A DNA stretch of 64,000 nucleotides, taken from the IMG/VR virus record IMGVR_UViG_3300037789_000070, positions 138,576-202,575 of that record, one strand, 5' to 3'. This DNA is from a virus (taxonomy: Duplodnaviria > Heunggongvirae > Uroviricota > Caudoviricetes). Positions 4,087 to 49,236 of this stretch are shown in pieces. Position 1 is the first letter of the stretch, and each line of letters starts with the position of its first letter. A program made the position numbers and the translations under genes. Under the pieces are notes generated by a model. It worked only from the letters and a program-made list of their open reading frames with translations. It was not told where the DNA came from and made no database searches.

Positions 4087-4092
4087 TTAATC

Positions 4093-9780: not shown

Positions 9781-9815
9781 TAAACGAATATTCTGAGAAA
9801 AAATATATAAAGAAA

Positions 9816-9863: not shown

Positions 9864-9871
9864 AGAATACT

Positions 9872-10297
9872 ATGGCTGAAATCAAAATTAGCCTCTTACC
9901 GGATATTCTAAAGAAAAGCACTGATGGAAGTGTCAATATGACATACCAACAAATACACAGTGCTTGTCTAAGTGGTGATATTCCAGTCACTCGATCTGCA
10001 ACCAATAGGTTGTATGTCCAAGAAGATAAAATCCCAGAAATTATAGAAACTTTTTCTTTACAGAATGAACAGGCTCGTATTGAACGAGAAGTTGCTGAAA
10101 AGGCCAAACGCCTAGGAGTACCTGTCATTCCTAAAAAGGAGAGTAAACCAATTGCCCCTACAGAAACCAACCCAGTGGTTTCTATATGCGGTCAATGTGG
10201 TATGGAAATGAGAGCAGTTATGCATTACTCGTGCAGTAGAAGTGATTGTCCTTGTTTCACAAATTTAACTTTTACAAACGAGGTAAAAAATGATTGA
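9872..10297 (+). CDS. small protein with N-terminal HTH-like segment and C-terminal Cys4 zinc ribbon
   Basis: C-terminal CGQCGMEMRAVMHYSCSRSDCPC. N-terminal TYQQIHSACLSGDIPVTRSATNRLYV resembles MerR/Xis-type HTH. Overlaps the vWA gene by 8 nt. Confidence 0.6.
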   Translation: MAEIKISLLPDILKKSTDGSVNMTYQQIHSACLSGDIPVTRSATNRLYVQEDKIPEIIETFSLQNEQARIEREVAEKAKRLGVPVIPKKESKPIAPTETNPVVSICGQCGMEMRAVMHYSCSRSDCPCFTNLTFTNEVKND

Positions 10298-31537: not shown

Positions 31538-32413
31538 TCACTGATACATCATGACAGAGTTTAGATTACCTTCTTCGGCAGAAGAATTCGCAGCATCAGC
31601 AAGCTTTTCCAGAGCGTCTGCTCTCCGTTCTTCAATCTTCAAGGAAACATAGACATCATAAGGAACACCAGCCTGCTTTGCATTTTTGATGTCATTGAGG
31701 TTACGCACCTTCTGAAACGCCTGACGCTTGTCTTCGACTGAAATTTCTGCTGCCAGCGCACGAATCTGTCGTTCCTTATTTTCATCAATAGCATAGAGCT
31801 TTCGCTTTGCCGTGATAACCTCATCCGGAACAGTACCGATACCATTAGTAAAAGTCAATTCCGTGACTTCCACAGGCGTTTCTGCAAGAGCTAGATTGAC
31901 TTCATTCTTAACATAATTGCCGATCAAAACAACTTCGCTAAGAGTTTCTTCCACAGTATACTGTTTCAGCGCGTCAATGATAGTGCCGGAGACAACACGC
32001 TTAATATACACTTCATAAATTGCATCAGAAGTAATCTTTCGCTCACGAGTAGATTGTCGGTCATCAGCAAAAACTGATCGGACTTCACTAGCAACTTGAC
32101 GCAACGCTTCGGGCGTATTTTTGATGCGAAACTGAATACCTGCGGTAACATTTTCCAGATCAACATTTGACTTAGGTAGAAATACCCGAGTAATTGTCAT
32201 TGATGCGGAAGACTTGGAAGCCTCAACACGAAGTAGAGAAGCACACGCTTCGCCCGGTCCACAAAAATCCAGCCGAGTAGCACCGGGATTAATAATTTCT
32301 GGATTAACACCAGAAGAACTAATTTCAAAACCAACTTCATTTGGCTGGATAGTCACCATTTCACCACAGGCAACAAGAGCCATTGCCATAATAGAAACTA
32401 GAATTACTCGCAT
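31538..32413 (-). CDS. SPFH/band-7 (prohibitin/stomatin-like) domain lipoprotein
   Basis: Signal peptide with lipobox (LVACG). Core with SPFH-like pattern (TVEETLSEV ... VEVTELTFTNGIGTVPDEVITAKRKLYAIDENKERQIRALAAEI) and a C-terminal coiled coil. Confidence 0.65.
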   Translation of the reverse strand: MRVILVSIMAMALVACGEMVTIQPNEVGFEISSSGVNPEIINPGATRLDFCGPGEACASLLRVEASKSSASMTITRVFLPKSNVDLENVTAGIQFRIKNTPEALRQVASEVRSVFADDRQSTRERKITSDAIYEVYIKRVVSGTIIDALKQYTVEETLSEVVLIGNYVKNEVNLALAETPVEVTELTFTNGIGTVPDEVITAKRKLYAIDENKERQIRALAAEISVEDKRQAFQKVRNLNDIKNAKQAGVPYDVYVSLKIEERRADALEKLADAANSSAEEGNLNSVMMYQ

Positions 32414-32576: not shown

Positions 32577-34001
32577 ATGAGTGTTTCCGCGAGTGATTAC
32601 ATTCTAGACATTCAGCGAAGCTATGCGCTTTATACTAATAACGGTCGATACATTCCTAATGCTACCGATGGTTTGAAACGGGCCATGCGTCAGGCTATGG
32701 AAGTTATGTATAGTCATAATGGCAGGTTTAAAACAAGCGCTCTATCCGGTGCAATGCAAGAACGAAATCTGTATCCTCACGGCGATGCATCAGATTCTAT
32801 TTCTTCACTGGCAGCACCTTTTATTAATAATGTTCCTCTTCTAAGGGCACACGGGACATTCGGAACGAAGGTGAATCCTACTGCCTTTGCGGCACCTCGT
32901 TACACTGATGTGGACAAGCCGCCCTATATTAATGATCTTTTTTATCTTGATCGGGACATTCTTCCGCTCAAAGATAATTTTGATGGAAGTCGTAAAGAGC
33001 CTAAGACGTTCCTTCCAATTATTCCCACTCTCCTTGTAAACGGAATGGTTGGTATTGGTACGGGGTGGTCTTGTACAATCCTTCCCCGAAACATTAATGA
33101 TATTTGTGAAGCTGTTATTGATGTTTTGAACGGAAAAAAACCAAAACGTCTTCTTCCAGATTATTCTTGGGCAAAGACCAACTGTGAATTTATCGAATAT
33201 AACGATAAGGGCAATGCAAAATGGCTTTTCATTGGCGAAGTGGAAATGCCAGACACATCTAGTATTCGAGTTACCGAACTTCCTTCGGGATTGTCTTTGG
33301 AAGATTTCAAATCCAAACTTTCTACTATGGAAGAAAATGGAACTATCAAAGATTTTATTGATAATTCATCTAATGAAATTTCAGTAACCATCAAGCTTAA
33401 ACGCGGTCAGTGTAAGGGGTGGTCGAATGCAGATGCTATTGATTTCCTGAACTTGAAAAAAACTCGGACTGAAAACTTCGTCGTGGTCGGATTTGATGGA
33501 GATACTATTACTCCATATGCTTATGATGGAAAGACTGATCCTATCGAACAATACATCAAGGATTGGGTTGAGTGGAGATTCGGTTGGTATACTGATCGGT
33601 ATAATCATCTTAAGAAAGAAACTACTGATGAACTCAACTACCTTCGTCTCCTGTTCGAATGCTATGCTCGTAATCTTCCCATGGTTTTGGGAGATTTAAA
33701 GAACAAGGCCGAACTGAAAGGAATGATTGAGGCGATTGGTAACGAAGCCAAGATTTCTTTTGGGGACCATCATGTTGAAAGGATTTGTAATCGGGCCACC
33801 TATAGCTGGACACGAGACAATTCATTGAAAGTAGTAGAAGATATAAAAGAAAAAGAGAAAGAACTTGACGAATTTAATCTTTTGTTAAATGATGAAAAAA
33901 AGCGCCGTGGTGTTTTTCTCACTGAGGTGAATGCAATTAAGTCTGCGGTTCCAAACATCAAAAAGAGCATCGACACAATTCGCGGCAAGAAAGCAAAATA
34001 A
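32577..34001 (+). CDS. DNA topoisomerase II, DNA-cleavage (GyrA/T4 gp52-like) subunit
   Basis: RYIPNATDGLKRAMRQAMEVMY (GyrA R..P...DGLKP..RR motif) and AAPRYTDV (AAxRYTE active-site Tyr). Confidence 0.85.
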   Translation: MSVSASDYILDIQRSYALYTNNGRYIPNATDGLKRAMRQAMEVMYSHNGRFKTSALSGAMQERNLYPHGDASDSISSLAAPFINNVPLLRAHGTFGTKVNPTAFAAPRYTDVDKPPYINDLFYLDRDILPLKDNFDGSRKEPKTFLPIIPTLLVNGMVGIGTGWSCTILPRNINDICEAVIDVLNGKKPKRLLPDYSWAKTNCEFIEYNDKGNAKWLFIGEVEMPDTSSIRVTELPSGLSLEDFKSKLSTMEENGTIKDFIDNSSNEISVTIKLKRGQCKGWSNADAIDFLNLKKTRTENFVVVGFDGDTITPYAYDGKTDPIEQYIKDWVEWRFGWYTDRYNHLKKETTDELNYLRLLFECYARNLPMVLGDLKNKAELKGMIEAIGNEAKISFGDHHVERICNRATYSWTRDNSLKVVEDIKEKEKELDEFNLLLNDEKKRRGVFLTEVNAIKSAVPNIKKSIDTIRGKKAK

Positions 34002-35929
34002 TGACTACTAAATCCAAAGCATATAGTCAGATTGACGTTCTTAACGATTATAAGTTTTCCCGTATCCGGACTGAAATGTTCTTGGGTAGCCGTGAGGCCA
34101 CGACTGAGACCATGATCTCCTTTGATGATAAGGGAGTGGTTCAGCGCGAGGAAACTTTTGTACCGGCTCTCTATACCTACTGGCGTGAGATTCTGGATAA
34201 CGCGGTAGATGAGGTAATAGGCCATGGTAATGGTAATCGGATTGAAGTCGATTACGATCCGGACACCATGACCTTTTCTGTCTATGATAACGGTCAGGGT
34301 ATCCCCGGAGATAAATTTGAAGTCCTCTTCACCATGACCAAATCAGGTCGTAATTTTGGTGACCGTGGAATTGTTGCTGGTACTAATGGTACTGGTGCTG
34401 CTATCACATGTCTGACTTCAAAAATGTTTAAAGCTGAAAGCTGGCGAGATAATAAACATTCTTCTCAGGAGTTTACCGAAGATCAGGACGGCGATGATAT
34501 GATCCGGGGAGAGCTTAAGGTAAGGCAACTCCGAGGCGTTAATCGTGGGAAGACTGGAACTAAGATTACTTTTTCTCCTAGTACTGATGTTTATGAAGAT
34601 GTGACTCTGCCCATTGAGTTTGTGTCTTCACGTTGTCAGGAAATTGCTGCCGCGTATCCTTCTTTGCGAATGTATTTCAATGGAGTACGAATTGGCGGGG
34701 AACGGACCACCGAAAAAATTCTGTTCGGAGATCTCAAACCTCTGACCATTTCTATTCGCGGTGAAATGAATACTGGTGGCGGCAAGCATCGCGTTCTCAA
34801 GGGTCGTGGCGTTGATCGTAAGGCGGACTTCAAATCAGATTTTTATCTTCTGCCCAATTTTTGTGAAGAAGGTGAAGCGTTCCATTCTCTTGTGAACGGC
34901 ATTGCTGCATACCGTGGCGGTAGTCAAATGGATGCTTTCCGTCGAAGCTTCTATAAGCTTGCAATCGAAGCTCTTAGTACAGAGGCCCGAAAGCGCAAAC
35001 TAGACAAGAGCCTTGACCGTAAAGATATCATGGAAGGCCTGTTGATCTATAACGTCACTATTATGCCTGCACCAAACTTCGATACCCAAAATAAGCAGAA
35101 GCTTGTTTCAAAGGATGCTGAAAAAATCATTTCTGAATCAATCACGCTGGCAGAAGTGAAGAAGATTTTCCGAGCTAATCCTGAATGGGTGAAGCAGATT
35201 CTTGACAACTGTGAAAAGCGGGTCGGGAATCAGGGTCTGAAAGACGCAATGCGCGAAAGTAAGAAAGCTATCAAGAAGCGGGTAGCTAAGCTTAAGGATG
35301 CAAATGGCCGGTCTCGAAGCAAATGTATTTTGTTTCTAGCGGAAGGAGACTCTGCTATTGAAGGTATGAACAATCTTCGTAACCCTGAAATTCATGGCGG
35401 TCTGCCTCTCCGTGGTAAAGTGATGAACGTGAACGGCGTCAATCCTGCTAAGGTGGTTAAGTCAGACCCTCTTCTAGACATCATGAATGCAGTGGGATTG
35501 CAGATCGGTCAGAAAGCCGTTCCCTCTGATCTTCGTTATGGAAAAATCTACATCGCAACAGATGAAGATGAAGATGGCGGAAATATTACTGCACTAATTG
35601 TTAATTTTCTATATACCTTTTGGCCGGAACTATTTGACAAGAAAAAACCAATGGTATATAAGTTTGAAACTCCGTTTATCATTTTGATTAAGGGCGGTAA
35701 ACGGAATTATATCTTCGGCAAAGACTATGCAAAATTTAATCCTTCTGATTGGAAGGGTTGGGACATTGTTAGAGCCAAGGGCGTTGGTCGCCTTGAACAG
35801 GAAGATTGGAAAAACATGTTGGATTCTCCTTCTCTAATTCCAATCGTTGATGACGGCCATCTAGAAGAAGCGTTGGACTTGATGTTCAACGGAGACCTCG
35901 CAGATGAGAGAAAAGGATGGCTATCATGA
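34001..35929 (+). CDS. DNA topoisomerase II, ATPase plus Toprim (GyrB/T4 gp39+gp60-like, unsplit) subunit
   Basis: GHKL motifs ILDNAVDE, DNGQGIP and GTNGTGAA. Toprim LFLAEGDSA and IATDEDEDGGNI. Confidence 0.85.
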   Translation: MTTKSKAYSQIDVLNDYKFSRIRTEMFLGSREATTETMISFDDKGVVQREETFVPALYTYWREILDNAVDEVIGHGNGNRIEVDYDPDTMTFSVYDNGQGIPGDKFEVLFTMTKSGRNFGDRGIVAGTNGTGAAITCLTSKMFKAESWRDNKHSSQEFTEDQDGDDMIRGELKVRQLRGVNRGKTGTKITFSPSTDVYEDVTLPIEFVSSRCQEIAAAYPSLRMYFNGVRIGGERTTEKILFGDLKPLTISIRGEMNTGGGKHRVLKGRGVDRKADFKSDFYLLPNFCEEGEAFHSLVNGIAAYRGGSQMDAFRRSFYKLAIEALSTEARKRKLDKSLDRKDIMEGLLIYNVTIMPAPNFDTQNKQKLVSKDAEKIISESITLAEVKKIFRANPEWVKQILDNCEKRVGNQGLKDAMRESKKAIKKRVAKLKDANGRSRSKCILFLAEGDSAIEGMNNLRNPEIHGGLPLRGKVMNVNGVNPAKVVKSDPLLDIMNAVGLQIGQKAVPSDLRYGKIYIATDEDEDGGNITALIVNFLYTFWPELFDKKKPMVYKFETPFIILIKGGKRNYIFGKDYAKFNPSDWKGWDIVRAKGVGRLEQEDWKNMLDSPSLIPIVDDGHLEEALDLMFNGDLADERKGWLS

Positions 35930-36373: not shown

Positions 36374-36604
36374 ATGACTAAAAAGAATCTAGTGCCGTCT
36401 AAGAACGGCGTTTTGGCCCCAGTAACAAACCTTACTAATACGGCGGTAGCTTGGTTTGATGATCAGAAAAGCGACACACAGGCAATAGTAGTTGCTGGCG
36501 TTGCCGTGGGTGGAACTATCCTAGGAACCTTCCTAGGACCACTTTCATTAATTCTGTGGCCAGCATCAGCTTATGCGGCTTACAAGCTGGCCAAGCGAAT
36601 TTAA
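36374..36604 (+). CDS. small membrane protein (76 aa)
   Basis: Two hydrophobic helices (AIVVAGVAVGGTILGTFLGPLSLILWPA). Confidence 0.5.
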   Translation: MTKKNLVPSKNGVLAPVTNLTNTAVAWFDDQKSDTQAIVVAGVAVGGTILGTFLGPLSLILWPASAYAAYKLAKRI

Positions 36605-36739
36605 GTGTTGACACCTTAGCTGGAATGATCTAAAGGTATCTTTATTGAGGGCCATTCAAGAACTTCCTTCTAAAAAACTTTCTTGCAATGAAACCATAAT
36701 AGTTTTTGGCCTATCCCTCGTTTTAAAAGGATTTCAAAG

Positions 36740-38818
36740 ATGAAGAATAAGATTTGTGTTAAGAAACTCAACGCCGTGACGTTTGATGTAAACAAGAATC
36801 GGTCCAGCCGTGCGGAAGGCATGGCTATCGCCAGTGAAATGATTAAGCTGGGCTATGTCCCATCTGATCGTCTTCTGGATATGTTGCAGCGCATTCCTGC
36901 ACGTGATCTTATTCGCGTACATTCTGACATCATCTCCACTCTCTCAGCAGAGCGTGGTTTTCATGACAATTACAATCCCATGTATCCTAACTTCCCGCAG
37001 CAGGTTAAGGATGCAAGTTCTATGGAATTGTTTTTCAATGCAATTCGTCATTACCTCACTCGCGGTGCATGGGTGCCTACTTATGCCAAGGAACCCCGTC
37101 CTCGCCTTGAAGAGGTGACCGAGACGGTAGAAATCGATTATGCGGATCATGATGATTATATGTCCGTGTTTGATCTTCTGCTCGCTTCAAATGATTCGCT
37201 TTCCGAATTCGATAAGAGTGCTGTGTTCTGGTTCTTGGACACTGAGCCGAATATCATGGTTCCGGAAAATATCCCGTATAAGGAAACCGCTTGTATTCTT
37301 GCGGCACGTTCTTTGGAAATGAAGAAGAACGATGTTTCTCTATATGTGAAGACCACTACTGATGTTCTTCGTCTTGCTGTTCATCTCTCTGGCGGCGATG
37401 TTTCTCTTGCAGAAAACACCAAGTTTAAGATCGCAAAGCGTTTTCGTAAGCCTCTCATCTCAATTCTTGAAGAGGTGATTTCAGAAGAAGACGTAAAGCG
37501 CCACGAGAACCGTTGGAAGCGTTTGTTCCATACTCTTCATGTGGGTGAGTATAAGTGGGCGGCGAAGGTCAACGCCATCGCCAAGAAGGTCCGTAATGGA
37601 GAGAATCTTGTTTCTGTTCTAACAGATTATGATTTCTTCATGAAGCATGGTGATGTCAATAAGGCGTTTGATAGTCTAAAGGGTCGTCCGGGTGAACTTG
37701 CACGTCGCCTTGACCACATTATTCGATCAGTGCCAGAAGCTAAGAATCAGAAGAGCTTTGTAGAAGAGTTCGTCAACGATATTGCGGATAAGGTGTCAAC
37801 TCGTGTTCTCATGCAAATTCTTGGGAATGTGAAGGCTCGCCGTAATAACCGTCACAAGGAAACCATTGTGTTTCCAAAGGGGGCTATTGGCAAGGCAGTC
37901 AAGGTTAACCGTGAGGGCGAGGGGACCATTAGCGCCGGAGCAATGTCTGCACTAGAAAAGGGAATTGGTAAGGTTCTCTTTGATCGTTTTGCAGAAGAAG
38001 AGGGCCTTGGCAATGTGTTCATTGATGAAGGACTGAAGAAGATTCCTCTTCCTCAGCAGCAGCGTTCTGCGTCCGAATCGATGAAGACCATTTCACGCGG
38101 AAGTCGCGTTCCGTTTGATGGCAATAACACGATTCGTCTCTTCTGTTATTGGGTTGGTCAGGACATTGACCTTTCTGCGTCTTTCCATGATGATAATTTC
38201 AACATGGTATCGCAGGTTTCCTATACCAATCTGCGTAATGGAGCAGCGTATCATAGCGGTGATATCGTTAGTGCTCCGGATGGTGCTTCTGAATTCATTG
38301 ATATTGATGTTAAGAAGGCCGAGGCCGAAGGACATCGTTATATCGTATTGAACCTTTACGTGTATTCTGGTCCGAACTTTTCCGATCATAAGGTATGTTT
38401 TGCCGGTTGGATGGATCGGAAGAAGCCCAATAGTGGTGAAGTTTATGAACCTACTACGGTCGTTAATCGTGTAGACATTTCGTCCGCTTCTCGCAATTGC
38501 ATCCCTGTGATGTTTGATATAAAGACTCGGGAAGTTATTTGGGTAGACCTTCCGTTTTCGGCTAATAAGCTGCGTAATTCCTTTTACGGTGGAAATAACG
38601 TCCAAAATAACCGTGCAAAGGTTCAGGAAGTTGTTGGAATGTTTGCCAATCTTAATGAGCAAAAGACTTCTCTCTATGATCTCTTGGAAATTCACGCCAA
38701 GAGTCGTGGTAAGATTGTCAAGGACCGTGAAGACGCAGATTTCGTCTTTGGCGTGTCTGATGGCGATTTGACCGCATATGATGTAAACACCATTAATGCA
38801 GACTTTATTAAAGGATAA
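36740..38818 (+). CDS. large protein (692 aa) with C-terminal TerD (tellurite-resistance D / Ca-binding beta-sandwich) domain; N-terminal ~480 aa unassigned
   Basis: aa ~485-620: LFCYWVGQDIDLSASFHDDNFNMVSQVSYTNLRNGAAYHSGDIVSAPDGASEFIDIDVKKAEAEGHRYIVLNLYVYSGPNFSDHKVCFAGWMDR. Aligns motif by motif with TerD: GLGWD...DLDASAFLL...FIFYNNL..DGSV.H.GDN.TG.GDGDDE.L.I.L...KIIFVVTIHD...FGQV. Confidence 0.75.
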   Translation: MKNKICVKKLNAVTFDVNKNRSSRAEGMAIASEMIKLGYVPSDRLLDMLQRIPARDLIRVHSDIISTLSAERGFHDNYNPMYPNFPQQVKDASSMELFFNAIRHYLTRGAWVPTYAKEPRPRLEEVTETVEIDYADHDDYMSVFDLLLASNDSLSEFDKSAVFWFLDTEPNIMVPENIPYKETACILAARSLEMKKNDVSLYVKTTTDVLRLAVHLSGGDVSLAENTKFKIAKRFRKPLISILEEVISEEDVKRHENRWKRLFHTLHVGEYKWAAKVNAIAKKVRNGENLVSVLTDYDFFMKHGDVNKAFDSLKGRPGELARRLDHIIRSVPEAKNQKSFVEEFVNDIADKVSTRVLMQILGNVKARRNNRHKETIVFPKGAIGKAVKVNREGEGTISAGAMSALEKGIGKVLFDRFAEEEGLGNVFIDEGLKKIPLPQQQRSASESMKTISRGSRVPFDGNNTIRLFCYWVGQDIDLSASFHDDNFNMVSQVSYTNLRNGAAYHSGDIVSAPDGASEFIDIDVKKAEAEGHRYIVLNLYVYSGPNFSDHKVCFAGWMDRKKPNSGEVYEPTTVVNRVDISSASRNCIPVMFDIKTREVIWVDLPFSANKLRNSFYGGNNVQNNRAKVQEVVGMFANLNEQKTSLYDLLEIHAKSRGKIVKDREDADFVFGVSDGDLTAYDVNTINADFIKG

Positions 38819-39272
38819 TGAAGTGAGTAACGATAATTGTCCCCATGAAACAATTTCTTCTTTCATGGGGACGTATGACTTCCTCTCGAATTTTCATACC
38901 TCCCCCTGTGAGTTCGAGGGGAAGTCATTTCCTTCTGTAGAACACGCTTATCAAGCAGCAAAGACCACTGATAAAATGTGGAAAGCTGCCATTACGGATG
39001 CACCTACTCCCGGCGAATCTAAGAAACTTGGAAGAAGGTGTCCTGTTCGGGAAGACTGGGAAGAAATCAAACTTTCTGTAATGGAAGAATTGGTTAGAAG
39101 TAAATTTTCTAATCCAAAACTTTCTCAGAAACTTCTCGAAACTAATGATAAACTTCTTGTCGAAGGAAATACTTGGGGAGATACCTTCTGGGGCGTCTGT
39201 AATGGACGGGGAGAAAACCACTTAGGTAAGATTTTAATGAAGGTTCGTTCGGAATTAAAAGAAAAAAATTGA
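38796..39272 (+). CDS. NADAR-domain protein (YbiA/DUF1768; ADP-ribose/N-glycoside hydrolase fold)
   Basis: YDFLSNF...F.GKSFPSVEHAYQAAK ... W..IKLSVMEELVRSKFSNPKLSQKLLETNDKLLVEGNTWGDTFWGVCNGRGENHLGKILMKVR is the canonical NADAR motif set. Start may be the internal ATG at 38865. Confidence 0.8.
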   Translation: MQTLLKDNEVSNDNCPHETISSFMGTYDFLSNFHTSPCEFEGKSFPSVEHAYQAAKTTDKMWKAAITDAPTPGESKKLGRRCPVREDWEEIKLSVMEELVRSKFSNPKLSQKLLETNDKLLVEGNTWGDTFWGVCNGRGENHLGKILMKVRSELKEKN

Positions 39273-39296: not shown

Positions 39297-39320
39297 ACAT
39301 GAATGAAAGTAAGGAAACCC

Positions 39321-40550
39321 ATGAACACCGCATTAAAAATTGATTTTCCAGAACTTCATTCAGAAGAATTGAAGTGTCTGTTCGATGCATTCACATCGAA
39401 TGGTCATAAAGTTTTCTTGGTGGGTGGCTCTGTCCGAAACGCTCTTCTTGGAAGGCCGGTTTCCGATCTTGATATCACGGTCGATTGTCCCCCCGATATC
39501 AGTACTATTGTTCTTGAGGCAGCAGGGTTTGAAGTAATTCCTGTTGGTTTTGATCACGGGACTGTTGTTGCCATTTTGAATGGACAAAGCTTTGAAGTCA
39601 CGACATTTCGTAAGGACGTAGAAACTGACGGACGTCATGCTAAAGTCATCTTTACTGATGATATTGTTGAAGATGCTAAGCGTCGAGACTTAACTATCAA
39701 TGCCCTCTATGCAGATATCGAAGGAAATGTTTTTGACCCTCTCGGCAATATCGGTGACATTGAGGGGCCAGTCGTTCGTTTTATTGGCGTTCCTAGTGAA
39801 CGCATCACCGAAGATTTTTTGCGAATTCTTCGTTTTTTCAGGTTCTCAAGCACCTACACATCTTCTGTTGATTCAGAAGGATTGGAAGCCTGTGTTCGAA
39901 ATAAGGTGGGACTAAAAAGTCTTTCAATAGAGCGTATCCGGGATGAAATTATCAAAATCATTCCAACTAATAACGCTCCTAATATTTTTCATATTATGAA
40001 ACATAATGGAATTCTGGATTTTATTTCAGGATTGAACTTTGATGTAGACCGCTTTGAACGTGCGGTCCAGCGACTTGGTGTCGAGGATGTCGATTTCCTT
40101 GTTTCGTTGATCCTGTTTCATGAAAAGAATAGTTTTGATTCTATTGAGAAATTCAAACTTCCGAATAAAATCAAGAATCGAATCAGTACTTTGGTACACC
40201 TGTCTCCAATAGAAGTTTCTACCTCTACAGGCATGAAGAAAATTCGTAGCTTGATTTTTCATTATGGGAAGGAAGAAATCTTAGATATTCTTAAGCTTAA
40301 GATTGCAGATTGTGATGAAGCAGAGGTGGATCTTTTTAAAGAGGTTTTGACAAATGCTTCGGCAGTTTCCCTTCCGAATAATCCATTAACTGGTAAGGAA
40401 CTTATTAAACGCGGGTTCAAGCCCGGAGTTCTTTTTAAAGACATCAAGAATATTTTCGATGAACTTTGGGAAGAAGCAGACTTCACAACAGACCCAGTGG
40501 AGTTGGATGAACTGATTTCGTCTGCGGTATCTAAGGTCCAGAATTCTTAA
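39321..40550 (+). CDS. tRNA nucleotidyltransferase (CCA-adding enzyme) / poly(A) polymerase-family head domain
   Basis: KVFLVGGSVRNALLGRPVSDLDITV is the GG(S/A)VRD-LLG....D.D head-domain signature, followed by RRDLTINALY. ATG at 39321 preceded by AAGGA. Track start 39303 is probably too early. Confidence 0.85.
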   Translation: MNTALKIDFPELHSEELKCLFDAFTSNGHKVFLVGGSVRNALLGRPVSDLDITVDCPPDISTIVLEAAGFEVIPVGFDHGTVVAILNGQSFEVTTFRKDVETDGRHAKVIFTDDIVEDAKRRDLTINALYADIEGNVFDPLGNIGDIEGPVVRFIGVPSERITEDFLRILRFFRFSSTYTSSVDSEGLEACVRNKVGLKSLSIERIRDEIIKIIPTNNAPNIFHIMKHNGILDFISGLNFDVDRFERAVQRLGVEDVDFLVSLILFHEKNSFDSIEKFKLPNKIKNRISTLVHLSPIEVSTSTGMKKIRSLIFHYGKEEILDILKLKIADCDEAEVDLFKEVLTNASAVSLPNNPLTGKELIKRGFKPGVLFKDIKNIFDELWEEADFTTDPVELDELISSAVSKVQNS

Positions 40551-40984
40551 GAAGCTTTGGCGGTACTTGACAACTTTTCGAGTACCGCCTTTTTTAATTT
40601 CGGATTAATCTTTGCATAGTCTAAAATGTTACCAAAAGATCTGACAAAAATCTGATTTTGAATGGCTTCAGCAAATTGATCTACTTGAGTTCTCGACATA
40701 CTACCGGCATAAGTTTGATGTTCGTCAGTCAAACTAACAGAGTAATAATTATCAAAGCTGCCATTGCCAATTCTGTAGGCAACCCACATATGTTCAGATA
40801 ATGAACCATCCCAAACATATAGATCGCCTTTATAATCGCCCGCTCTTAAATCTCCAAATTTAGTTTCCCCAAATAACTTTCTAACAAAATTCTTATGTGG
40901 GTTGACAAATACCCTAACCTCTCTATCACTTTTCCCGTCAGTAAGTAAAATACTCCTACCTTCGAATAAATCTACAATTTTCAT
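40547..40984 (-). CDS. hypothetical protein (145 aa) immediately downstream of the minus-strand fibre gene
   Basis: ORF. Start overlaps the fibre stop. Confidence 0.5.
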   Translation of the reverse strand: MKIVDLFEGRSILLTDGKSDREVRVFVNPHKNFVRKLFGETKFGDLRAGDYKGDLYVWDGSLSEHMWVAYRIGNGSFDNYYSVSLTDEHQTYAGSMSRTQVDQFAEAIQNQIFVRSFGNILDYAKINPKLKKAVLEKLSSTAKAS

Positions 40985-43900
40985 CTTTCGACTTCCATTT
41001 TATTCACGTCTTTTCTTTCGCCATAAACGACATAGAAAGCATTAATTCTTTTCTTCATGAGAGAAGATTTTCCAATCACCACTTTCTTGTTATCAAACGA
41101 TTTAACAAACAATTTCTGATACTCGCCAATTGGTTCAGTTGAAACTGTAATACTATCGGCATCTACAAGGCCCTCCCAGTACTCAGGAAGCTCGATAATT
41201 CCATCAGCAGGAATTCTACCTCTGACATAGACGCCGTTCTCAGGGCCTTCCAGAGAGCCGTGGCGAAGCTTTTTGCCGGGCTTGGTAGGATGATCAATTA
41301 AGAAACTCTTGTCGTAAGCATAAAGAGTGCCCGTGATGTATAAATCATCACCAGCAAATCTCGCTGCCTGAACACCTGCCAAGGTAATTGCGAGTTCATC
41401 GGCAGAAGGAGAATAAATTCCTGTGTTAGAGTCTCCACCAAAGGTCAGGCTAGGAGTACCAACGACTCCTTGATCCAGTACCAACTTTTTATATGGGTTA
41501 GAATCGGTTCCAAGATAAGAAGAATCGCTGCCATCTCTAGGCTGCATAAAACTCGACCTTAGAACGGCTGCATTTCCACTTGAACCAACATAAACGTTTG
41601 ATCCTGTGAAATTAGAAATGAATAGATCGGTTCCGGAAAGTGGGTCTAGATGTTTGGTTTGAATGCGACCATCACCAGAACCGTCATTGATAGTTAAAAC
41701 ACCAGAAGAAGTAATCTTACCAGCTTCAATACCACCAGCAACAAAACTCAAAGTATCTGCAGCCGAAGCACCGATACCCGTATTAGTGTCTGCGTTATTC
41801 GGAATGATTGAAGGAACGGTTCCAGAAGCAACTACATCTGCGAGAGACCAACTTCCACTAGTAGAATTAGTTATTCCACCATCAAGGGAAACTGTACCAT
41901 CAAACTGAATTTCTCCACTCTGTTCTACTCTAAACACTCTAAGATCGGCACCAGATTGGTTCTCACTCCAAAGCTCAAGTGAATTATCTACACCCGTTTC
42001 CGACCCAGTATACTTGAAGAAGAAGCCATCATTTCCGTTACTATGGCCAACTCGTAAGAAATTCCAATCGTTATCATCACCAGAAAAATGGAGACGAGTA
42101 TTAGCGGCATATGGAACAGTAATCTCTCCACCGTCTGGTTGTAACACCATAGAGGAAGAAGTGTTGTTGCCTTGGATGCGTGGAACCGTCAGTGTGTGAC
42201 TAGTATCTGATATAGTAATTGGTGTGTTAGCAGTTAATACAGAACTGGTAAGTCTGGCCACCTCTGATCCGCCAGCTATTAAACTTAAAGCGTCTGCGGC
42301 TGCGGTACCAATACCAGTATTTGCATCTGATTTGTCTGGGAGAACACTAGGAACTGTATTAGAGGCATTTACATAGGCAAGCTTAGGACCTCCTGATGCA
42401 AATGCTTCTAAACCGGTGGTGGTCAATTCAAACGAAGTACTTCCGTTCGCCAATGTCATCACAGAACCAGAATAGTCATATGATATTTGAGCGCCTATAG
42501 TGCCGTCATCAGAGAATGATAATCCACCAGTATCTGTTGAATAAATTACAATACCACTATAAGCATCAGAACTATCACCAACAACTACAGTATCTAAGGA
42601 ACCAGCTATATCTGCAGGTCTGTCTTCGCCACCAAGTTTAACACGTCCGGGAAGAACAATTTGACCGTCAGCATAAAAACTAGCAGCTTGAGAAAGTGTA
42701 GATTTATGAGTTGAAGGAAATGCAAAACTTACGACTGCTTGAGGAGTTAAATCGGACCTAACGCCAATACGAATATCTAATGCAGAAGTTGGAGAGGCAC
42801 TAGTGGTGTACGTTATTGAACAACGATACCAACCACCATTAACCTCTACTAGTTCAACATCATCTAAACTTCCATTTCCAAGACTAACGTCAGAAGCCAA
42901 CATAGTTGCAGGATCAAACACACCTTCAAAATCGTTATCAGCGTCTCCTAGATATGCCTGAACAACAAATTTCTGTCCAGAAGTTAGTTTTGCAAGAACT
43001 GAGGTTGTGTATTGAGTTGAACCGTCTAGAGTAATTCCAGTTTCATATTCTCTTTTATAACCAGTCCCACTTGTCAATTCTAGCGTAGCTGCAGATGACC
43101 CACCAATTGGATCAGTTACTGAACCTGTAAAACTTCCTGTACCATCAGTTAATTCACCACTGAACAGAGAACCTATTGCTGTTGCAGGAGAATTTATTAG
43201 TTCATCAGTTCTTTCAATTATTAATCTTTCGCCAGAAGGGTTTCCAGAAGATACCTGTTGAGAAATTTTAAATTTAGAACCTGTACCAGCGGTATATTGA
43301 TCTTCTGAGAAAGTTTCTCTTCTTGCATAATTATACCGGACCGTTCTTTCACCCTTACGACCATCTTGTAAAACATCTTCTACAAGAATCGAAGAACCAG
43401 TTTGATTATCAGTATACAACTCTAATGAGTTTAGATTGCCACCCTTGGAACCATTGTATTTTCTTGAGAAACCATAATTAGATGACCCATCATCAATACG
43501 CCAAACATTAGCATCAGTATTTGAGTTCTTAATATAGAGTCCATCCGTCACTGCGGTTCCAGAACCTAATACAATTCCTGTATTTGTGATTGAAGCAAAA
43601 GTTTCGGTGCTGTCTACAAGGTCTATGCCACTGGCTTTTGATAGAAGCCTAATATCAAAATCATCACTAGCGTCTCCTTTGAAATCAATATAAGAAGAAG
43701 GAGTTCCAGAAGAACCTTTTACCAGTTCTAGATTTCCATCGTCACCAAGTTGAGAAACTTTGCCACTATTTGATACCTTTATACTTCCTGAGTTAACTAG
43801 AAGATCGGTTCCATCATAGCCCCACCAAACTTCACTTAAATCTTCATTACCAAACGCATGACGCCATGTATCTACGCGTGTGCCAATAGAAGCTGAATAT

Positions 43901-46900
43901 GTTCCAGCATCAAATCTTATGGAGGCGAAGTTTGAAGAAGAATCTATTCGCAGAGAATAATCACCGAATGAAGACTGATTTCTTGAAATGTCAATTTTCC
44001 CGGTGGTGCTGTCATCGGCATCAGACCTTAAAAATTGGGAAGCTTCCAGACCATCAACGGTATCGGCATCTAAATTGTTTCCCGATCCTTCATTTGAAGT
44101 GGTTAAGATATTAGCATCAGAAATGAAATCAGCTACTGAACGTTTCTTAGGTACCGAATTATCATCATCATCAAAAAACACAAGATCATCAGCCGTAGAC
44201 GCAGACGCTTCCTGAAGATTGGCATTTGATAAAGAAATGGTTCTGTTTTGCGAAAGATCGCCGCCACCAGATAAACCAAAACCAGTGGAAAGCGTTCTTG
44301 TTATCTGAACGAAATCGGTACTATCAAGTCCATCAAGTGTATCTGCGTTAGTTACATCTTCAGAACCCGGAGCGAAGAGTAATTTCATATTACCTTCAAT
44401 ACCAAACTTCCATCCGTTTGATGCTTCATCCCAAATCAACAGAGCATCTGGTTCGTCGCCACGCTCAATGCGGAAACCGGAATCTAGTGTTGGCGTTCCT
44501 GTCTGGTTTTTAGATAATGTAATAACAGGGTCTTCAACAGAAAGTTCAGTAGTATTGATGGTGGTGGTTTCGCCATTAACCGTTAAGTTTCCAGAAACAG
44601 TTACATTTCCAGTAAAAGTCTCATCTACATTGTTTCTAGCAATACCAAGATCATCTATAACATCTGAAATGATAACTGCTCTTGCAATATCACTAGAAGA
44701 GACATCTTGGAAGATGAGTTTATCGGAAAGAGTTATCGTACTACTTCCAAGAGAAGAGAAATCTAATTCAATTGTTCTATTGGTCGAAAGATCTCCGCCA
44801 CCGGTTAAACCAATTCCAGTTGAAATTGATCTACTGGTCTGTACAAGTCCAGCAAGATGAACGCCATCAACTGTGTCAGCGTCTAGTCCACTTCCAGAAC
44901 CATCGTTAGAAGCAGTCCATATTCCTAAATCAGATATGAAGTTGCTTACGGTCCTTCTTGAAGCTACAGTTTCAGAAAGATCATATGTCACAATACTGTC
45001 GGTCAGTGCGACACTTTCTGAAGAGGAAAGAGAATTTAAATCAAGTTCAATTGTTCTGTCAGAAGTTAAATCACCACCACCAGACAGTCCGGTTCCAGTT
45101 GAAATTGATCTACTAGTCTGTACAAGTCCAGCAAGATGAACGCCATCAACTGTGTCGGCGTCTAGTCCGTTACCAGAACCCGTGTCGGATGTCGTTATAA
45201 CACCAAGATCATTGAAAAAGTTACTAACACTTCTTCTTATAGTCTGGTCAGATGAATCGTCATAGAAAGCAAGACTGTCATCGGTTTCGATTTCCGTAGT
45301 TGAAGTAAGCGATTCGATATCAAGTTCAATTGTTCTGTCAGAAGTTAAATCACCACCACCAGACAGTCCGGTTCCAGTTGAAATTGATCTACTGTTTTGA
45401 ACGATTGCGCTTCCTTGGATGCCATCAACCGTATCGGCATCCAATCCACTTCCAGAACCATCGTTAGAAGCAGTCCATATATTATTGTCTGATATAAACT
45501 GAGGAATACTTCTCTGTTTTACGGTTGCAGAGTTGGTAAAGAAGAGAAGGGAACCGGTATTAGCAGATGTTGTTGCATCAATTCCGATGGTAGAAAGTCT
45601 TAAACTTCTATTTGTTGAAAGGTCACCACCACCAAAAAGACCGGAACCACTATCGGTTGAAATTGATCTACTGGTCTGTACAAGTCCAGCAAGATGAACG
45701 CCATCAACTGTGTCGGCGTCAATACCAGAACCACTACCAACATTGCCTGCATGAAACACATCATACCAAGCGTCATCGTCGCCTATCTGCCACTCAGTTC
45801 CATTATATCTAATCTGTGTTCCCGCCACTTCTCCAATTCTAAAATCAGAGGTATAAGCCGTCAATTCATATTGTTTTGTTCCATTACCAATTATAATGTT
45901 TTGACTTGAACCATCGGTTACATTGGTAAACGTAGCATTCATCTGATCATCAATATCAGATCGTATGAATTGCGAAGATAAAATGCCATTTAATTGAGTT
46001 GCATTAACGGCACTGTTAGACGTCAGTAGTTCATATTCAGAACCAGATAAACCAGCTTTCCACTTATCGGAAACCTCGTCCCACAAAATTCTTGCGTTGG
46101 TTTGGAGTCCCCTCTCAACTTCAATGCCAGCATTTTCAGTAGGATTGGAAGTAACATCCCCATTCAAAGTTATGATATTATCTGAAATATTTAATTCGGT
46201 GGTACTGATGGTGGTGGTAGTTCCACGAACTGTTAGGTTCCCATCAACAATTAAATCTCCCGTGAAATTTTGTGATGCCTCGCTTAGAATAGCAACATCA
46301 AGTGCATCAATGAGGTTTGATAGTGTTGTTTTTCTTAATGATGTGCCATCAAAGAAAGTGATTTCATTAGTTCCGGATGGGTTTTGAGAAGTAACACCAT
46401 TTGTAGATAAAGACAGACTTCTATCAGCAGACAGGTTACCACCACCAGATAAACCAGAACCACTAACAGTAGATACTAATCTAGATGTTCTTGTATAAAA
46501 TGAGCCTTGAACCCCATCTAATGTGTCAGCGTCCAGACCGCTACTAGATCCATCATTACCTGCGTGCCAAACCTTATTCCCATTAATTCTAAGTTCAGCA
46601 GTGTTGGGGTTGGAACCATCCGCTTTAAATTCAAACTCTGTTCCACCAGAACCGTTCGCAGTTAAAGACACACCACCGGATGAATTACCAAATAAATCCC
46701 AAACCCCAGTATCAGTAGAAGTAAAAGAAATACCTGCGTTAAGGGCGGCAGTGAATGTTCCAGAGAAATTTTTATCTCCAGTGGTCAACAACATTTGGGT
46801 AGAATGAACGCCATCAACTGTATCAGCGTCCAGTCCGTTACCACTTCCTTCATCAGCCGTAGTTAGAATGCCGATGGAATTAATGAAAGACGATACGGTT

Positions 46901-49236
46901 GCTCTTCTAGAATCGTTAGAAGAATTAGAATCTGAAAACAGAAGATAATCGTCAGAAGCCGGAACTGCTACAATTAAACGATTCAGGTCTAGATAGAGAT
47001 TCAAGTCGTCATCAAGAACTCCTCCTCCACCTAAACCAGATTCATTATTAGTATTGATAGAAAACGTCTTTTGCACAAATGCTGATGCTTCGATACCATC
47101 AACTGTATCAGCATCAAGACCATTGCCGGAACCTGTGTTAGCAGTAGTTAATATATTAAGGTCTGAAAGGACTGCACCAAGATTTCTCTTCTTAATGGCA
47201 TTTGAATTGGAGAAATCAGAAAAGGCAATAAAATCATTTCCTGTAACTGCAGAAGATGGTGAAAGAAGAGAATAATCTAACTCAATTGTTCTATTAGTAG
47301 ATAAATCACCACCACCGGCCAGACCATCACCAACGGTAATCGTTCTGCTGGTCTGTACAAGTCCAGCAAGATGAACTCCATCAACCGTATCTGCATCAAG
47401 ACCACTTCCATCACCATCAACGGTTTTAATTGCAGTCAATAATTGTGAAGGAGTTTGATCGGCAGTTGCTCCGCTTTCAATAGTGTCTAATTTTGAGTAA
47501 ACGGCATCAATATCTCTTCCATTAATGTTTCCCGAAACACTTATAGAAGATGCGGTTAATGAACCGCCAACATAAAAATTAGAGGTCAGAGTACTAAATC
47601 TGTCGTTAGTCTCGTCCCATATAAATCTTACATTGCCGCTCGTTCCACGTTCTACTTCAAATCCTGCATCTTGAGATGGTGAACCAGTTTCATCAGAATT
47701 AAGAACAATGATGTTATCGCCGATGTTAACTGTATTACTATCAATCTGAGTGGTTGTTCCTTCAACGGTGATATTACCTTTAACAACAATACCATCATCG
47801 TTGATTTCAACTCTCTGCCCTGCTCCTGTAGAGATTCCAATACTATCTGCCCCAGTTCTATAGAACCCGGTGTTAGTATCACTCATAAACGATATTGAAG
47901 GAGTACTTTCGGTTCCATCGCCAACATAGATTGTACTAATATTTGAAGACGACCACGGCTGTGATGATTTGCCAAGGATACTAGTACCTTCAAGAACAAC
48001 ATCGGTACCATCTCTTAACACCAAATCATCGGAAAGATTTAATCCGCTTAAATTTTCAGAACCATCAACGGTTAGAATTCTCAAATCAGAGATAAATTGA
48101 GTTGCGGTTCTTACTTTTTCAGTTGTGTTGTCCGTCCAGAACGATATTAGGTTAGAACCGACTATAGGAGACGTGGTATCAAGACCTACTTTTGTGAGGG
48201 TGATGGTCCTGTCAGCCGTTAAATCGCCACCACCGGCCAAACCTGCGCCAGTGGAGATGGTTCTAGTAGACCTAGCAAAGGCAGTGCTGTCCAATCCATC
48301 AAGTGTTCCGGCATCGACCGCTAGAGGATTGTCAGATGTTACGATATTGAAATCAGCGATAAAATCTGAAACTTCTCTTCCCCTAAGAGTTCCATCCCAA
48401 AATGCAATAACAGAATCATCTGATGGAGCAGTGGAAGTTCCTAATCCTGAAAAATCAACTGATAGGGTCCTGTCAGCCGTTAAATCGCCGCCACCGGCCA
48501 AACCTGCGCCAGTGGAGATGGTTCTTAGTTGTGTTGCAACAGCCGTTCCGTTTACATAAAGACCGGCCAAAGAAGCGGACAAAATCTCTGTACTACCATT
48601 AACGGTGATTGAGAACTTTTCAGTTCCTGAATTATTATCAGTGTCTATATTGTGCGTGATGTTGCCAGAAGACGATATATTGAGGTCGCCAACTGATCTA
48701 ATGGATTGAGAAATAAATTCGGTAGCGGTCACAGAACCGGCCACAGAACCGGCCACATCAGACCTTAAGAATTGAGAAGCTTCTAATCCGTCGAGAAGAT
48801 CCGCATCAATTCCAGAGCCGGAACCGTCATTAGCCAAGACTTCATTGATAACATTTTGAGCAATTTCATGAAGCCATTCGGTTCCGGTCCATACTAGAGT
48901 TTTATCTTGTTCTTCATCCCAGACTCTCCATCCTTCTTCTGGTTCAAAGAATATCCAAGTATCCGATACCCATCTAGCAATCTCATCATCATGCCCGGCC
49001 CACGCACCGGTCGCACCGGTCGCAACGATATAACTGTCTCCTTCTTGGGGGGTAGTTTCAGGGGTTGTTTCGTCAGAATAACGAACTGAAAAGCCAAGTT
49101 CAGAAAATTCACCTAGGGTTACTGGTGATTGACCCGGTATTGAAAGAACCAAACCAGCACTAGTGGCAGTTAAGGTCGCCTTTCCTATTGAAAAGCTATC
49201 ACCACTAATACCAGTTATATTTGATTTTCTAGCCAT
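40981..49236 (-). CDS. giant tail-fibre-like protein (2751 aa) with about 13 DADT(V/L)DG-type repeats
   Basis: 8.3-kb ORF. Repeats of SGSGLDADTVDGVHLAGLVQTSRSISTGTGLSGGGDLTSDRTIELD. Very G/S/T-rich. C-terminal ~130 aa non-repetitive. Confidence 0.85.
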   Translation of the reverse strand: MARKSNITGISGDSFSIGKATLTATSAGLVLSIPGQSPVTLGEFSELGFSVRYSDETTPETTPQEGDSYIVATGATGAWAGHDDEIARWVSDTWIFFEPEEGWRVWDEEQDKTLVWTGTEWLHEIAQNVINEVLANDGSGSGIDADLLDGLEASQFLRSDVAGSVAGSVTATEFISQSIRSVGDLNISSSGNITHNIDTDNNSGTEKFSITVNGSTEILSASLAGLYVNGTAVATQLRTISTGAGLAGGGDLTADRTLSVDFSGLGTSTAPSDDSVIAFWDGTLRGREVSDFIADFNIVTSDNPLAVDAGTLDGLDSTAFARSTRTISTGAGLAGGGDLTADRTITLTKVGLDTTSPIVGSNLISFWTDNTTEKVRTATQFISDLRILTVDGSENLSGLNLSDDLVLRDGTDVVLEGTSILGKSSQPWSSSNISTIYVGDGTESTPSISFMSDTNTGFYRTGADSIGISTGAGQRVEINDDGIVVKGNITVEGTTTQIDSNTVNIGDNIIVLNSDETGSPSQDAGFEVERGTSGNVRFIWDETNDRFSTLTSNFYVGGSLTASSISVSGNINGRDIDAVYSKLDTIESGATADQTPSQLLTAIKTVDGDGSGLDADTVDGVHLAGLVQTSRTITVGDGLAGGGDLSTNRTIELDYSLLSPSSAVTGNDFIAFSDFSNSNAIKKRNLGAVLSDLNILTTANTGSGNGLDADTVDGIEASAFVQKTFSINTNNESGLGGGGVLDDDLNLYLDLNRLIVAVPASDDYLLFSDSNSSNDSRRATVSSFINSIGILTTADEGSGNGLDADTVDGVHSTQMLLTTGDKNFSGTFTAALNAGISFTSTDTGVWDLFGNSSGGVSLTANGSGGTEFEFKADGSNPNTAELRINGNKVWHAGNDGSSSGLDADTLDGVQGSFYTRTSRLVSTVSGSGLSGGGNLSADRSLSLSTNGVTSQNPSGTNEITFFDGTSLRKTTLSNLIDALDVAILSEASQNFTGDLIVDGNLTVRGTTTTISTTELNISDNIITLNGDVTSNPTENAGIEVERGLQTNARILWDEVSDKWKAGLSGSEYELLTSNSAVNATQLNGILSSQFIRSDIDDQMNATFTNVTDGSSQNIIIGNGTKQYELTAYTSDFRIGEVAGTQIRYNGTEWQIGDDDAWYDVFHAGNVGSGSGIDADTVDGVHLAGLVQTSRSISTDSGSGLFGGGDLSTNRSLRLSTIGIDATTSANTGSLLFFTNSATVKQRSIPQFISDNNIWTASNDGSGSGLDADTVDGIQGSAIVQNSRSISTGTGLSGGGDLTSDRTIELDIESLTSTTEIETDDSLAFYDDSSDQTIRRSVSNFFNDLGVITTSDTGSGNGLDADTVDGVHLAGLVQTSRSISTGTGLSGGGDLTSDRTIELDLNSLSSSESVALTDSIVTYDLSETVASRRTVSNFISDLGIWTASNDGSGSGLDADTVDGVHLAGLVQTSRSISTGIGLTGGGDLSTNRTIELDFSSLGSSTITLSDKLIFQDVSSSDIARAVIISDVIDDLGIARNNVDETFTGNVTVSGNLTVNGETTTINTTELSVEDPVITLSKNQTGTPTLDSGFRIERGDEPDALLIWDEASNGWKFGIEGNMKLLFAPGSEDVTNADTLDGLDSTDFVQITRTLSTGFGLSGGGDLSQNRTISLSNANLQEASASTADDLVFFDDDDNSVPKKRSVADFISDANILTTSNEGSGNNLDADTVDGLEASQFLRSDADDSTTGKIDISRNQSSFGDYSLRIDSSSNFASIRFDAGTYSASIGTRVDTWRHAFGNEDLSEVWWGYDGTDLLVNSGSIKVSNSGKVSQLGDDGNLELVKGSSGTPSSYIDFKGDASDDFDIRLLSKASGIDLVDSTETFASITNTGIVLGSGTAVTDGLYIKNSNTDANVWRIDDGSSNYGFSRKYNGSKGGNLNSLELYTDNQTGSSILVEDVLQDGRKGERTVRYNYARRETFSEDQYTAGTGSKFKISQQVSSGNPSGERLIIERTDELINSPATAIGSLFSGELTDGTGSFTGSVTDPIGGSSAATLELTSGTGYKREYETGITLDGSTQYTTSVLAKLTSGQKFVVQAYLGDADNDFEGVFDPATMLASDVSLGNGSLDDVELVEVNGGWYRCSITYTTSASPTSALDIRIGVRSDLTPQAVVSFAFPSTHKSTLSQAASFYADGQIVLPGRVKLGGEDRPADIAGSLDTVVVGDSSDAYSGIVIYSTDTGGLSFSDDGTIGAQISYDYSGSVMTLANGSTSFELTTTGLEAFASGGPKLAYVNASNTVPSVLPDKSDANTGIGTAAADALSLIAGGSEVARLTSSVLTANTPITISDTSHTLTVPRIQGNNTSSSMVLQPDGGEITVPYAANTRLHFSGDDNDWNFLRVGHSNGNDGFFFKYTGSETGVDNSLELWSENQSGADLRVFRVEQSGEIQFDGTVSLDGGITNSTSGSWSLADVVASGTVPSIIPNNADTNTGIGASAADTLSFVAGGIEAGKITSSGVLTINDGSGDGRIQTKHLDPLSGTDLFISNFTGSNVYVGSSGNAAVLRSSFMQPRDGSDSSYLGTDSNPYKKLVLDQGVVGTPSLTFGGDSNTGIYSPSADELAITLAGVQAARFAGDDLYITGTLYAYDKSFLIDHPTKPGKKLRHGSLEGPENGVYVRGRIPADGIIELPEYWEGLVDADSITVSTEPIGEYQKLFVKSFDNKKVVIGKSSLMKKRINAFYVVYGERKDVNKMEVER
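44740..45730. repeat. tandem ~280-bp coding repeats with ~130-bp near-identical cores (at least 4 copies)
   Basis: The core ...CAATTGTTCT(G/A)TC...TTAAATCACCACCACC...CCAGTTGAAATTGATCTACTGGTCTGTACAAGTCCAGCAAGATGAACGCCATCAACTGTGTC(A/G)GCGTC recurs at about 44831, 45110, 45390 (diverged) and 45671. More copies at about 47343, and a pair at about 48190/48467. Confidence 0.8.

Follow-up and report, generated by a model that had tools for sequence, protein, structure and literature searches.

Large phages and many bacteria share a family of proteins of about 700 amino acids (aa) in which a helical domain is followed by a divergent TerD-fold module, and whose genes are embedded in tRNA arrays in phages and recur beside RNA-repair genes in a subset of bacterial chromosomes. 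The member analyzed here is a 692-aa protein encoded at 36740..38818 on the plus strand of a 64,000-nucleotide (nt) stretch of Caudoviricetes DNA (IMG/VR record IMGVR_UViG_3300037789_000070, positions 138,576 to 202,575), and this whole stretch is referred to below as the window. Our comparative analysis makes it more likely that the family acts on tRNA or other RNA than that it deals with metal stress. Taken together, fold, charge, distribution and genomic context point, tentatively, to an RNA-binding scaffold for tRNAs or tRNA-like RNAs that would be analogous to Ro60/Rsr, and this is the reading we prefer.

The gene is real, with full-length relatives at 43-50% identity (up to E=1.8e-229) and at least 2,788 matching proteins, and it belongs to an uncharacterized family represented by PHROG 33734 (E=1.4e-80, query 178-691 on profile positions 223-756 of 764). 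The protein is soluble, lacking a transmembrane segment (maximum 19-aa hydropathy 0.85), and its five cysteines (6, 185, 469, 553, and 587) are scattered, with no CxxC and no RING motif. An AlphaFold2 model made from a 42-sequence family alignment (pLDDT, the predicted local confidence, 87.3; pTM, the predicted template-modeling score, 0.86) resolves three parts:

36740..37999, plus strand: N-terminal helical region, aa 1 to ~420 (AlphaFold2 model).
38105..38557, plus strand: TerD-fold beta-sandwich, aa ~456-606, acidic with an isoelectric point (pI) of ~5 (AlphaFold2 model, Foldseek, and profile comparison).
38612..38815, plus strand: small C-terminal alpha/beta domain, aa ~625-692, following a low-confidence loop at 610-623.

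No fold could be assigned to the C-terminal domain, for which the sole match was an insignificant one to Cmr1_C (E 0.02-0.09).

The nature of the beta-sandwich is clear from its fold. A Foldseek search of the PDB with the model returned only two significant matches, both of them TerD crystal structures (3ibz, E 2.7e-6; 2qz7, E 4.9e-4), and when the sandwich region of the family was compared, profile against profile, with aligned TerD sequences, the probability was 74% (E 2.7e-5); a deeper family profile raised it to 87% (E 4e-6). The Klebsiella TerD sequence used agrees with 2kxt in the PDB at 191/192 positions. The TerD motifs are in register in the target, namely DIDLSASF at 475-482, VSYTNL at 493-498, HSGD...GASEF at 505-519, and RYIVLNLYV at 533-541, and the module's invariant residues are D475, D477, H505, G507, D508, G515, E518, D521, D593, and D603. 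Across 134 family members the equivalents of TerD D38, D40, D78, and E89 (D475, D477, D508, and E518) are ~100% conserved, that of D85 is variable, and the Ca-ligand equivalents D42, E83, D87, and D88 are replaced (D42 by S, E83 by A, D87 by A, and D88 by S, C, or A). Owing to these family-wide replacements, the two-Ca2+ site of TerD is predicted from the sequences not to be intact in this family. The Pfam TerD model PF02342 has no match at E<=10 in the whole protein or its C-terminal 265 aa, nor at E<=0.01 in nine diverse relatives. With the fold present in the structure model and the Pfam match absent, the module is a divergent TerD fold and not a bona fide Pfam-TerD domain.

The first-pass annotation of this DNA had described a bona fide TerD domain matching motif for motif at residues ~485-620, including a GDGDDE-type Ca-binding site, and had proposed a significant PF02342 match and a retained fold as checks. 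The fold was indeed retained and the motifs align, so the TerD kinship stands in that form, but the silence of PF02342 and the loss of half of the Ca ligands leave the stronger wording overstated. It had also viewed the protein as a TerD domain fused to a large unassigned N-terminal region. With the N-terminal 431 residues alone as the query, a search at E<=0.001 recovers 1,741 representative clusters at 50% identity. Almost all of the listed ones measure 680-730 aa, match at the N-terminus, and have the same layout, which argues for one old, fixed architecture and not a fusion. Nor is a TerD module on a phage protein unusual, given that canonical TerD and Ter operons are known in jumbo phages (PMC7824862, PMC12880540) and that this family itself occurs widely in phages and bacteria.

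The N-terminal domain has a very different character from the acidic module. It is basic throughout the family, with a median pI of 8.95 vs. ~5 for the TerD module, and it carries most of the conserved arginine and lysine residues; conserved arginines of the protein include R211, R236, R285, R322, R442, and R466. The longest structural matches of the target model are Ro60 scaffolds, which are non-enzymatic. This likeness lies in structure and not in sequence: the target has no Pfam match to TROVE (PF05731) and none to vWA_Ro60, and hhalign comparison of the family profiles at two depths with a 30-sequence TROVE alignment gave probabilities of only 0.0-0.3%, and homology to TROVE at the sequence level was rejected. 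That alignment was built from relatives of Bxz1 gp220, which served as the positive control, matching TROVE at 9e-50 and vWA_Ro60 as well.

The family is widespread. IMG/VR holds 70 loci, many on contigs of 100-580 kb, and homologues were found by tblastn in Weasels2, XacN1, Xoo-sp13, RcXuper, RpAliso, SCTP-2, and WXIN. Full-length fold relatives in BFVD include proteins of Campylobacter virus IBB35, Lactobacillus phage LpeD, and one of the Siphoviridae, the last labeled “Putative tellurium resistant like protein.” Relatives are encoded at no fewer than 448 loci of GTDB representative genomes, some on complete chromosomes, with carriers among the Gammaproteobacteria, Planctomycetota, Bacillota, Chloroflexota, Cyanobacteriota, Acidobacteriota, Bacteroidota, Patescibacteria, and others. 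Niallia circulans and a Paenibacillus are examples of bacterial carriers. We conclude that the family is old, horizontally mobile, and common to large phages and many bacteria. One protein (P0398, from an 8.3-kb ENA contig) has the N-terminal domain joined to the N-terminal, glutamyl-tRNA-dependent segment of a LanB-type lantibiotic dehydratase; being a singleton on a short contig with a frame-shift-like C-terminal third, it was rejected as a probable chimera.

Phage tRNA islands are usually seen only as codon-usage or anti-nuclease devices. In viral genomes it is in these islands that the family gene is typically found, as tRNAs called by ARAGORN on all loci reveal (percentages after dereplication):

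Target family, viral, 53 loci: tRNA within 10 kb in 70%, within 2 kb in 45%, within 500 nt in 30%; 0.36 tRNA per kb of flank.
Canonical Ro60/TROVE, viral, 59 loci: tRNA within 10 kb in 41%, within 2 kb in 27%, within 500 nt in 14%; 0.11 tRNA per kb of flank.
Canonical TerD, viral, 18 loci: tRNA within 10 kb in 6%, within 2 kb in 0%, within 500 nt in 0%; 0.003 tRNA per kb of flank.

Canonical TerD and Ro60 loci were used for comparison because neutral controls from the window's own GyrB-like and DnaB-like genes yielded 0 and 1 IMG/VR loci, respectively (no usable relative of the former, and one at 39% identity of the latter). The target-family viral loci have a mean of 6.6 tRNAs per locus, with 345/350 on the strand of the gene, and Infernal confirmed the arrays by finding 75 tRNAs and two tmRNAs in seven of these loci. 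The tRNAs are dense over the 10 kb upstream and the first ~4 kb downstream, beyond which their density is ~five-fold lower, which suggests that the gene tends toward the distal end of the island. Annotated isolates show the same. The gp266 gene of Rhodococcus phage Weasels2 has tRNA-Asn on one side and tRNA-Pro on the other; eight tRNAs lie upstream of it, and RtcB is found 3.1 kb downstream. Gene 7 of Rhodobacter phage RcXuper is flanked by five tRNAs on either side, and the “nucleotidyl transferase” encoded 505 nt downstream of it is RlaP, of the RNA-repair Pol-beta family PF10127. XacN1 has no tRNAs near the family gene but carries RlaP 1.4 kb upstream of it, while LpeD and WXIN have neither flanking tRNAs nor RlaP nearby. 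On bacterial chromosomes tRNAs near the family gene are rare (8%).

Some of the phage arrays contain other RNA genes. In several loci ARAGORN calls “tRNA-Pyl” (CUA anticodon) or undetermined tRNAs ~0.2-1.2 kb from the family gene (L014, 9193-9271 and 12849-12923; L017, 13310-13386; L065, 12233-12307; L067, 11070-11146; L089, 11124-11194; L005, 3424-3496); recoded phages might use these as suppressor tRNAs, or they may be tRNA-like RNAs. Five loci have phage tmRNA genes 0.5-6 kb from the family gene, within the islands that hold the tRNAs (L010, 15164-15509; L016, 16060-16376; L019, 16959-17396; L046, 12448-12807; L053, 17742-18081).

The second contextual signal comes from bacteria. Genes for RtcB, Thg1, RlaP, a CCA-adding enzyme, or an RNA ligase lie within 8 kb of the family gene in 11/78 dereplicated bacterial loci from unrelated phyla, for which the Poisson probability is ~1e-8 given an assumed chance expectation of ~1 locus. 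Examples, in some of which the genes are direct neighbors, are L147, with RtcB at -199 nt and NADAR at +1 kb, L076, with two RlaP genes and RtcB, L106 and L116, with Thg1, and L080, with an RNA ligase.

In the window the target sits in a plus-strand block that runs from topoisomerase II to a CCA-adding enzyme and is closed by a terminator-like hairpin:

32577-34001, plus strand: T4-type split topoisomerase II, DNA_topoisoIV-domain subunit (Pfam).
34001-35929, plus strand: T4-type split topoisomerase II, HATPase_c, GyrB, and Toprim subunit (Pfam).
36374-36604, plus strand: 76-aa open reading frame (ORF) directly 5' of the target, with a hydrophobic segment (mean hydropathy 2.0 over 19 aa).
36605..36739, plus strand: 135-nt spacer 5' of the target; no Rfam family, and folding not above that of shuffled sequences (z=0.41).
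36740..38818, plus strand: the target gene.
38865..39272, plus strand: NADAR-domain gene directly 3' of the target (Pfam; start as in the public gene call).
39303..40550, plus strand: CCA-adding or PolyA_pol-type tRNA nucleotidyltransferase (PF01743 and PF12627; PHROG 2244), the last gene of the block.
40559..40589, plus strand: strong terminator-like hairpin immediately 3' of the CCA gene, with a 12-bp stem (7 GC) and a T-run.

Two small ORFs separate the topoisomerase II genes from the target; the 76-aa one has no family match and probably encodes a small membrane protein, judging from its hydrophobic segment. The spacer is probably only a promoter and ribosome-binding site. The longest NADAR ORF begins with an ATG at 38796, overlapping the target by 23 nt, whereas the public gene call on an identical region places its start at 38865, 47 nt past the target stop.

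The flanking genes are thus as the first-pass annotation had described them; the co-occurrence it had proposed with them is another matter. In the 10 kb to either side of the family gene, topoisomerase subunits homologous to those of the window occur in 0/74 loci, NADAR in 1/74, and the CCA-adding enzyme in 5/74, and iterated hidden Markov model searches of the dereplicated viral sets raise NADAR only to 2/54 and leave CCA at 5/54. Around canonical phage TerD such neighbors are no less frequent, its loci being even richer in RlaP (56%) and CCA (44%), and for this reason phage protein neighbors are weak evidence when taken alone. The adjacency of CCA and NADAR to the target in the window is suggestive but not decisive. 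The proposed link to Ter systems and defense islands also failed to hold, with no PADLOC match and no conserved bacterial partner. What survives is the theme of nucleic-acid repair, directed to RNA and tRNA rather than to DNA. The context that is conserved, tRNA arrays and recurrent neighbors for RNA-end repair, had not been foreseen in the first-pass annotation.

The canonical TerD loci with RlaP and CCA turned out to represent one conserved synteny, in which three tandem terD genes are followed by RlaP and CCA. In a series of IMG/VR gut-phage contigs (L241-L258) RlaP and CCA lie 1-5 kb downstream of the terD triplet, and the two overlap in several loci; in L246, for example, the triplet spans 8816-10576, RlaP 14692-15864, and CCA 15854-17221. 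This arrangement, which looks unreported, links bona fide TerD with RNA-end repair enzymes.

How might such a protein work? If the target is a Ro60/Rsr-like scaffold, as we tentatively propose, the basic helical domain would hold RNA, and the TerD-fold module would contact the RNA end or a partner enzyme in a way that depends on a divalent cation or a nucleotide. In this manner the protein would hand tRNA ends that are damaged or immature to the end-healing enzymes of neighboring genes, which here would be the window's CCA-adding enzyme and elsewhere RlaP, RtcB, Thg1, or RNA ligase. Alternatively, it could shield tRNA ends from nucleases during infection.

Several observations weigh against this proposal. 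The window itself has no tRNA gene in its 64 kb and no Rfam RNA at the gathering threshold, and neither a Y RNA nor any other Rfam family adjoins the gene, whether in the window (searched around the gene at E<=1 as well) or in 15 other loci. BLAST clustering of the neighbors in 74 loci and in 82 bacterial loci revealed no conserved operon partner. Most bacterial copies stand alone beside unrelated genes, and a Pfam census of 149 immediate bacterial neighbors likewise found no recurrent partner, the top family being GNAT (4/149). CCA, RlaP, Thg1, and NAMPT are also common around canonical TerD in one gut-phage lineage. Finally, accessory genes and homing endonucleases have their hotspots in tRNA islands, and the embedding of the family gene in them is therefore perhaps partly passive.

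Carried to its conclusion, this last point would make the gene a passenger (moron) with an RNA-unrelated function, gathered in tRNA islands as recombination and homing-endonuclease hotspots. GIY-YIG and HNH homing endonucleases do flank the family gene in many viral loci (including L003/L007/L008, L025, L034/L035, L067/L068, and L069), with GIY-YIG in 9/54 dereplicated loci, and the copies in the window, XacN1, LpeD, and WXIN lack flanking tRNAs; most bacterial copies have unrelated surroundings. We nevertheless consider a mere passenger improbable, since the tRNA association holds over 53 dereplicated loci with proteins 26-47% identical to the window protein, since the gene also recurs beside RNA-repair genes where a bacterial chromosome lacks tRNA islands, and since canonical TerD of comparably large phage contigs has no such association. 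Similarly improbable is an enzyme that would process, trim, or modify tRNA precursors or damaged RNA with an active site made of the invariant polar residues of the helical domain. Such an enzyme would suit the same genomic context, but no enzyme family is matched by sequence, the two conserved histidines are too few for a diiron or HD-type site, and the Ro60 scaffolds that give the longest structural matches are not enzymes.

A different kind of explanation looks to small molecules. The TerD module could bind a nucleotide-derived signal or Ca2+, with the helical domain transducing or sequestering it, and the protein would then act as a sensor or sponge that blunts NAD- or nucleotide-based immunity. 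Of the dereplicated viral loci, 22% encode NAMPT and 19% NadM-Nudix, and this pair is an NAD+ salvage and counter-defense route. A Tad2-like gene lies directly downstream of the family gene in L003, NADAR adjoins the target in the window, and the TerD site has five invariant acidic residues. TerD domains have in addition been predicted to bind ligands, specifically nucleoside derivatives (PMC7159879, PMC7824862). However, NAMPT is absent from all 78 bacterial loci and is equally frequent near canonical TerD, so that its presence is unspecific. Known sponges are small, whereas the target has some 700 aa and a large basic domain that is conserved, and neither PADLOC nor anti-defense families match the target. 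A sensor or sponge would also leave the tRNA-array embedding and the bacterial RtcB, Thg1, and RlaP neighbors unexplained, and we regard it as unlikely. The framing of the first-pass annotation, a Ter-type stress or superinfection-exclusion protein comparable to canonical TerD in tellurite, colicin, and phage resistance, is very improbable. It can appeal to the TerD fold, to the Ter components of jumbo phages (PMC7824862), and to the tellurium label of the one BFVD relative. Against it, TerB, TerC, TelA, and TerY/vWA genes are all lacking among the window neighbors, Ter genes do not figure among the most frequent Pfam families of the 149 immediate bacterial neighbors, and no Ter-like cluster appeared in the neighbor censuses. 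The protein also has no membrane segment, no PF02342 match, and only half of the Ca ligands, and its genomic niche is the opposite of that of canonical phage TerD (0.36 vs. 0.003 tRNA per kb).

The window as a whole belongs to a phage without a near relative in INPHARED (megablast of 9 kb gave no match), and an identical region was found only on a 45-kb Logan contig (SRR12659295). Just upstream of the topoisomerase II genes, on the opposite strand (31538-32413, minus), lies a gene for an SPFH/Band-7 protein (PF01145, E 2.6e-6) that has no homologue in the other loci of the target family; a scaffolding role in RNA-repair systems has been proposed for SPFH/Band-7 modules. Two giant ORFs are present, one of 3,706 aa at 13887-25007 (plus) with no Pfam domain, and one of 2,751 aa at 40981-49236 (minus) with only an N-terminal DUF2793, the latter likely to be a tail-fiber-type protein. 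Seven back-to-back ORFs of 306-349 aa occupy 192-7048 (plus) in a segment of 32% GC, the rest of the window being at 36-44%. Pairwise BLAST detects only faint similarity among them (best 21% over 217 aa, E 1.5e-4), and they may be a foreign cassette or an array of paralogues that have diverged very far.

The family was already in databases without a function, and its TerD-like fold had been noticed by at least one annotator. What appears to be new is the fixed architecture of a TROVE-like helical domain and a TerD fold, its embedding in phage tRNA arrays, and its RNA-repair neighbors in bacteria, and a literature search found no paper describing that combination. Found in thousands of phage and bacterial genomes, the family is a testable candidate for an unrecognized RNA-handling factor. 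TerD proteins have been without a mechanism for decades, and the family may hint at what TerD folds bind. Should the RNA role prove true, it would offer a testable handle on TerD-fold ligands and on how large phages and bacteria care for their tRNAs under nuclease attack; should it prove false, the annotation as a topoisomerase-linked Ter-type stress or defense protein is corrected all the same. A bolder and more doubtful extension is that the family constitutes an unrecognized class of Ro60-like ribonucleoprotein scaffold, with a putative TROVE-like ring and a TerD fold in place of vWA, serving tRNA surveillance, protection, or repair in jumbo phages and many bacteria, and with the TerD fold as an RNA-3'-end or nucleotide-binding module. 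If true, this would bear on the long-unexplained canonical Ter proteins, given the terD triplets upstream of RlaP and CCA in one gut-phage lineage.

Compared with known systems, PHROG 33734 is a direct family match, but it has no functional annotation and so provides a label and no mechanism. Searches of Pfam, NCBIfam, PADLOC, and PDB sequences gave no direct family assignment beyond it and a sub-threshold match to NF041916, the MXAN_6230/SCO0854 family of RING domain-containing proteins (an 842-position equivalog). The match to the latter (E=2.7e-104, 350 bits) falls below the 600-bit cutoff and aligns query 301-663 with profile positions 397-760, a stretch that takes in the TerD-like module and the last part of the helical domain; every relative tested matches too, at 206-441 bits. 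The target is therefore homologous to NF041916 proteins but ~150 positions shorter and without RING or treble-clef cysteines, nor does it have a RING match in Pfam, and we place its family as a RING-less sister group. A literature search found no paper on SCO0854 or MXAN_6230. Members of the TerD family (PF02342; Klebsiella 2KXT, Streptomyces 3IBZ, and SCO6318 2QZ7) are stand-alone proteins of ~190 aa, whereas the target's module is internal to a 700-aa protein, and the target family lies outside ter operons and, in phages, within tRNA arrays, unlike canonical TerD. Ro60/Rsr proteins, which combine TROVE and vWA and include those of Thermus phage phiLo and mycobacteriophage Bxz1 (gp220), have no detectable sequence similarity to the target. 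Salmonella rsr is located in the rtcBA operon. The partner RNAs of bacterial and phage Ro60 are tRNA mimics that undergo CCA addition (PMC4201824), and one phage Ro60 binds host PNPase as well as Y-like RNAs encoded by the phage (PMC12135203). Both Ro60 and the target family are sporadic in bacteria and present in large phages, and the modeled domain order of the target is that of Ro60, a helical solenoid followed by a metal-binding domain, with the predicted TerD fold at the position that the vWA/MIDAS domain occupies in Ro60.

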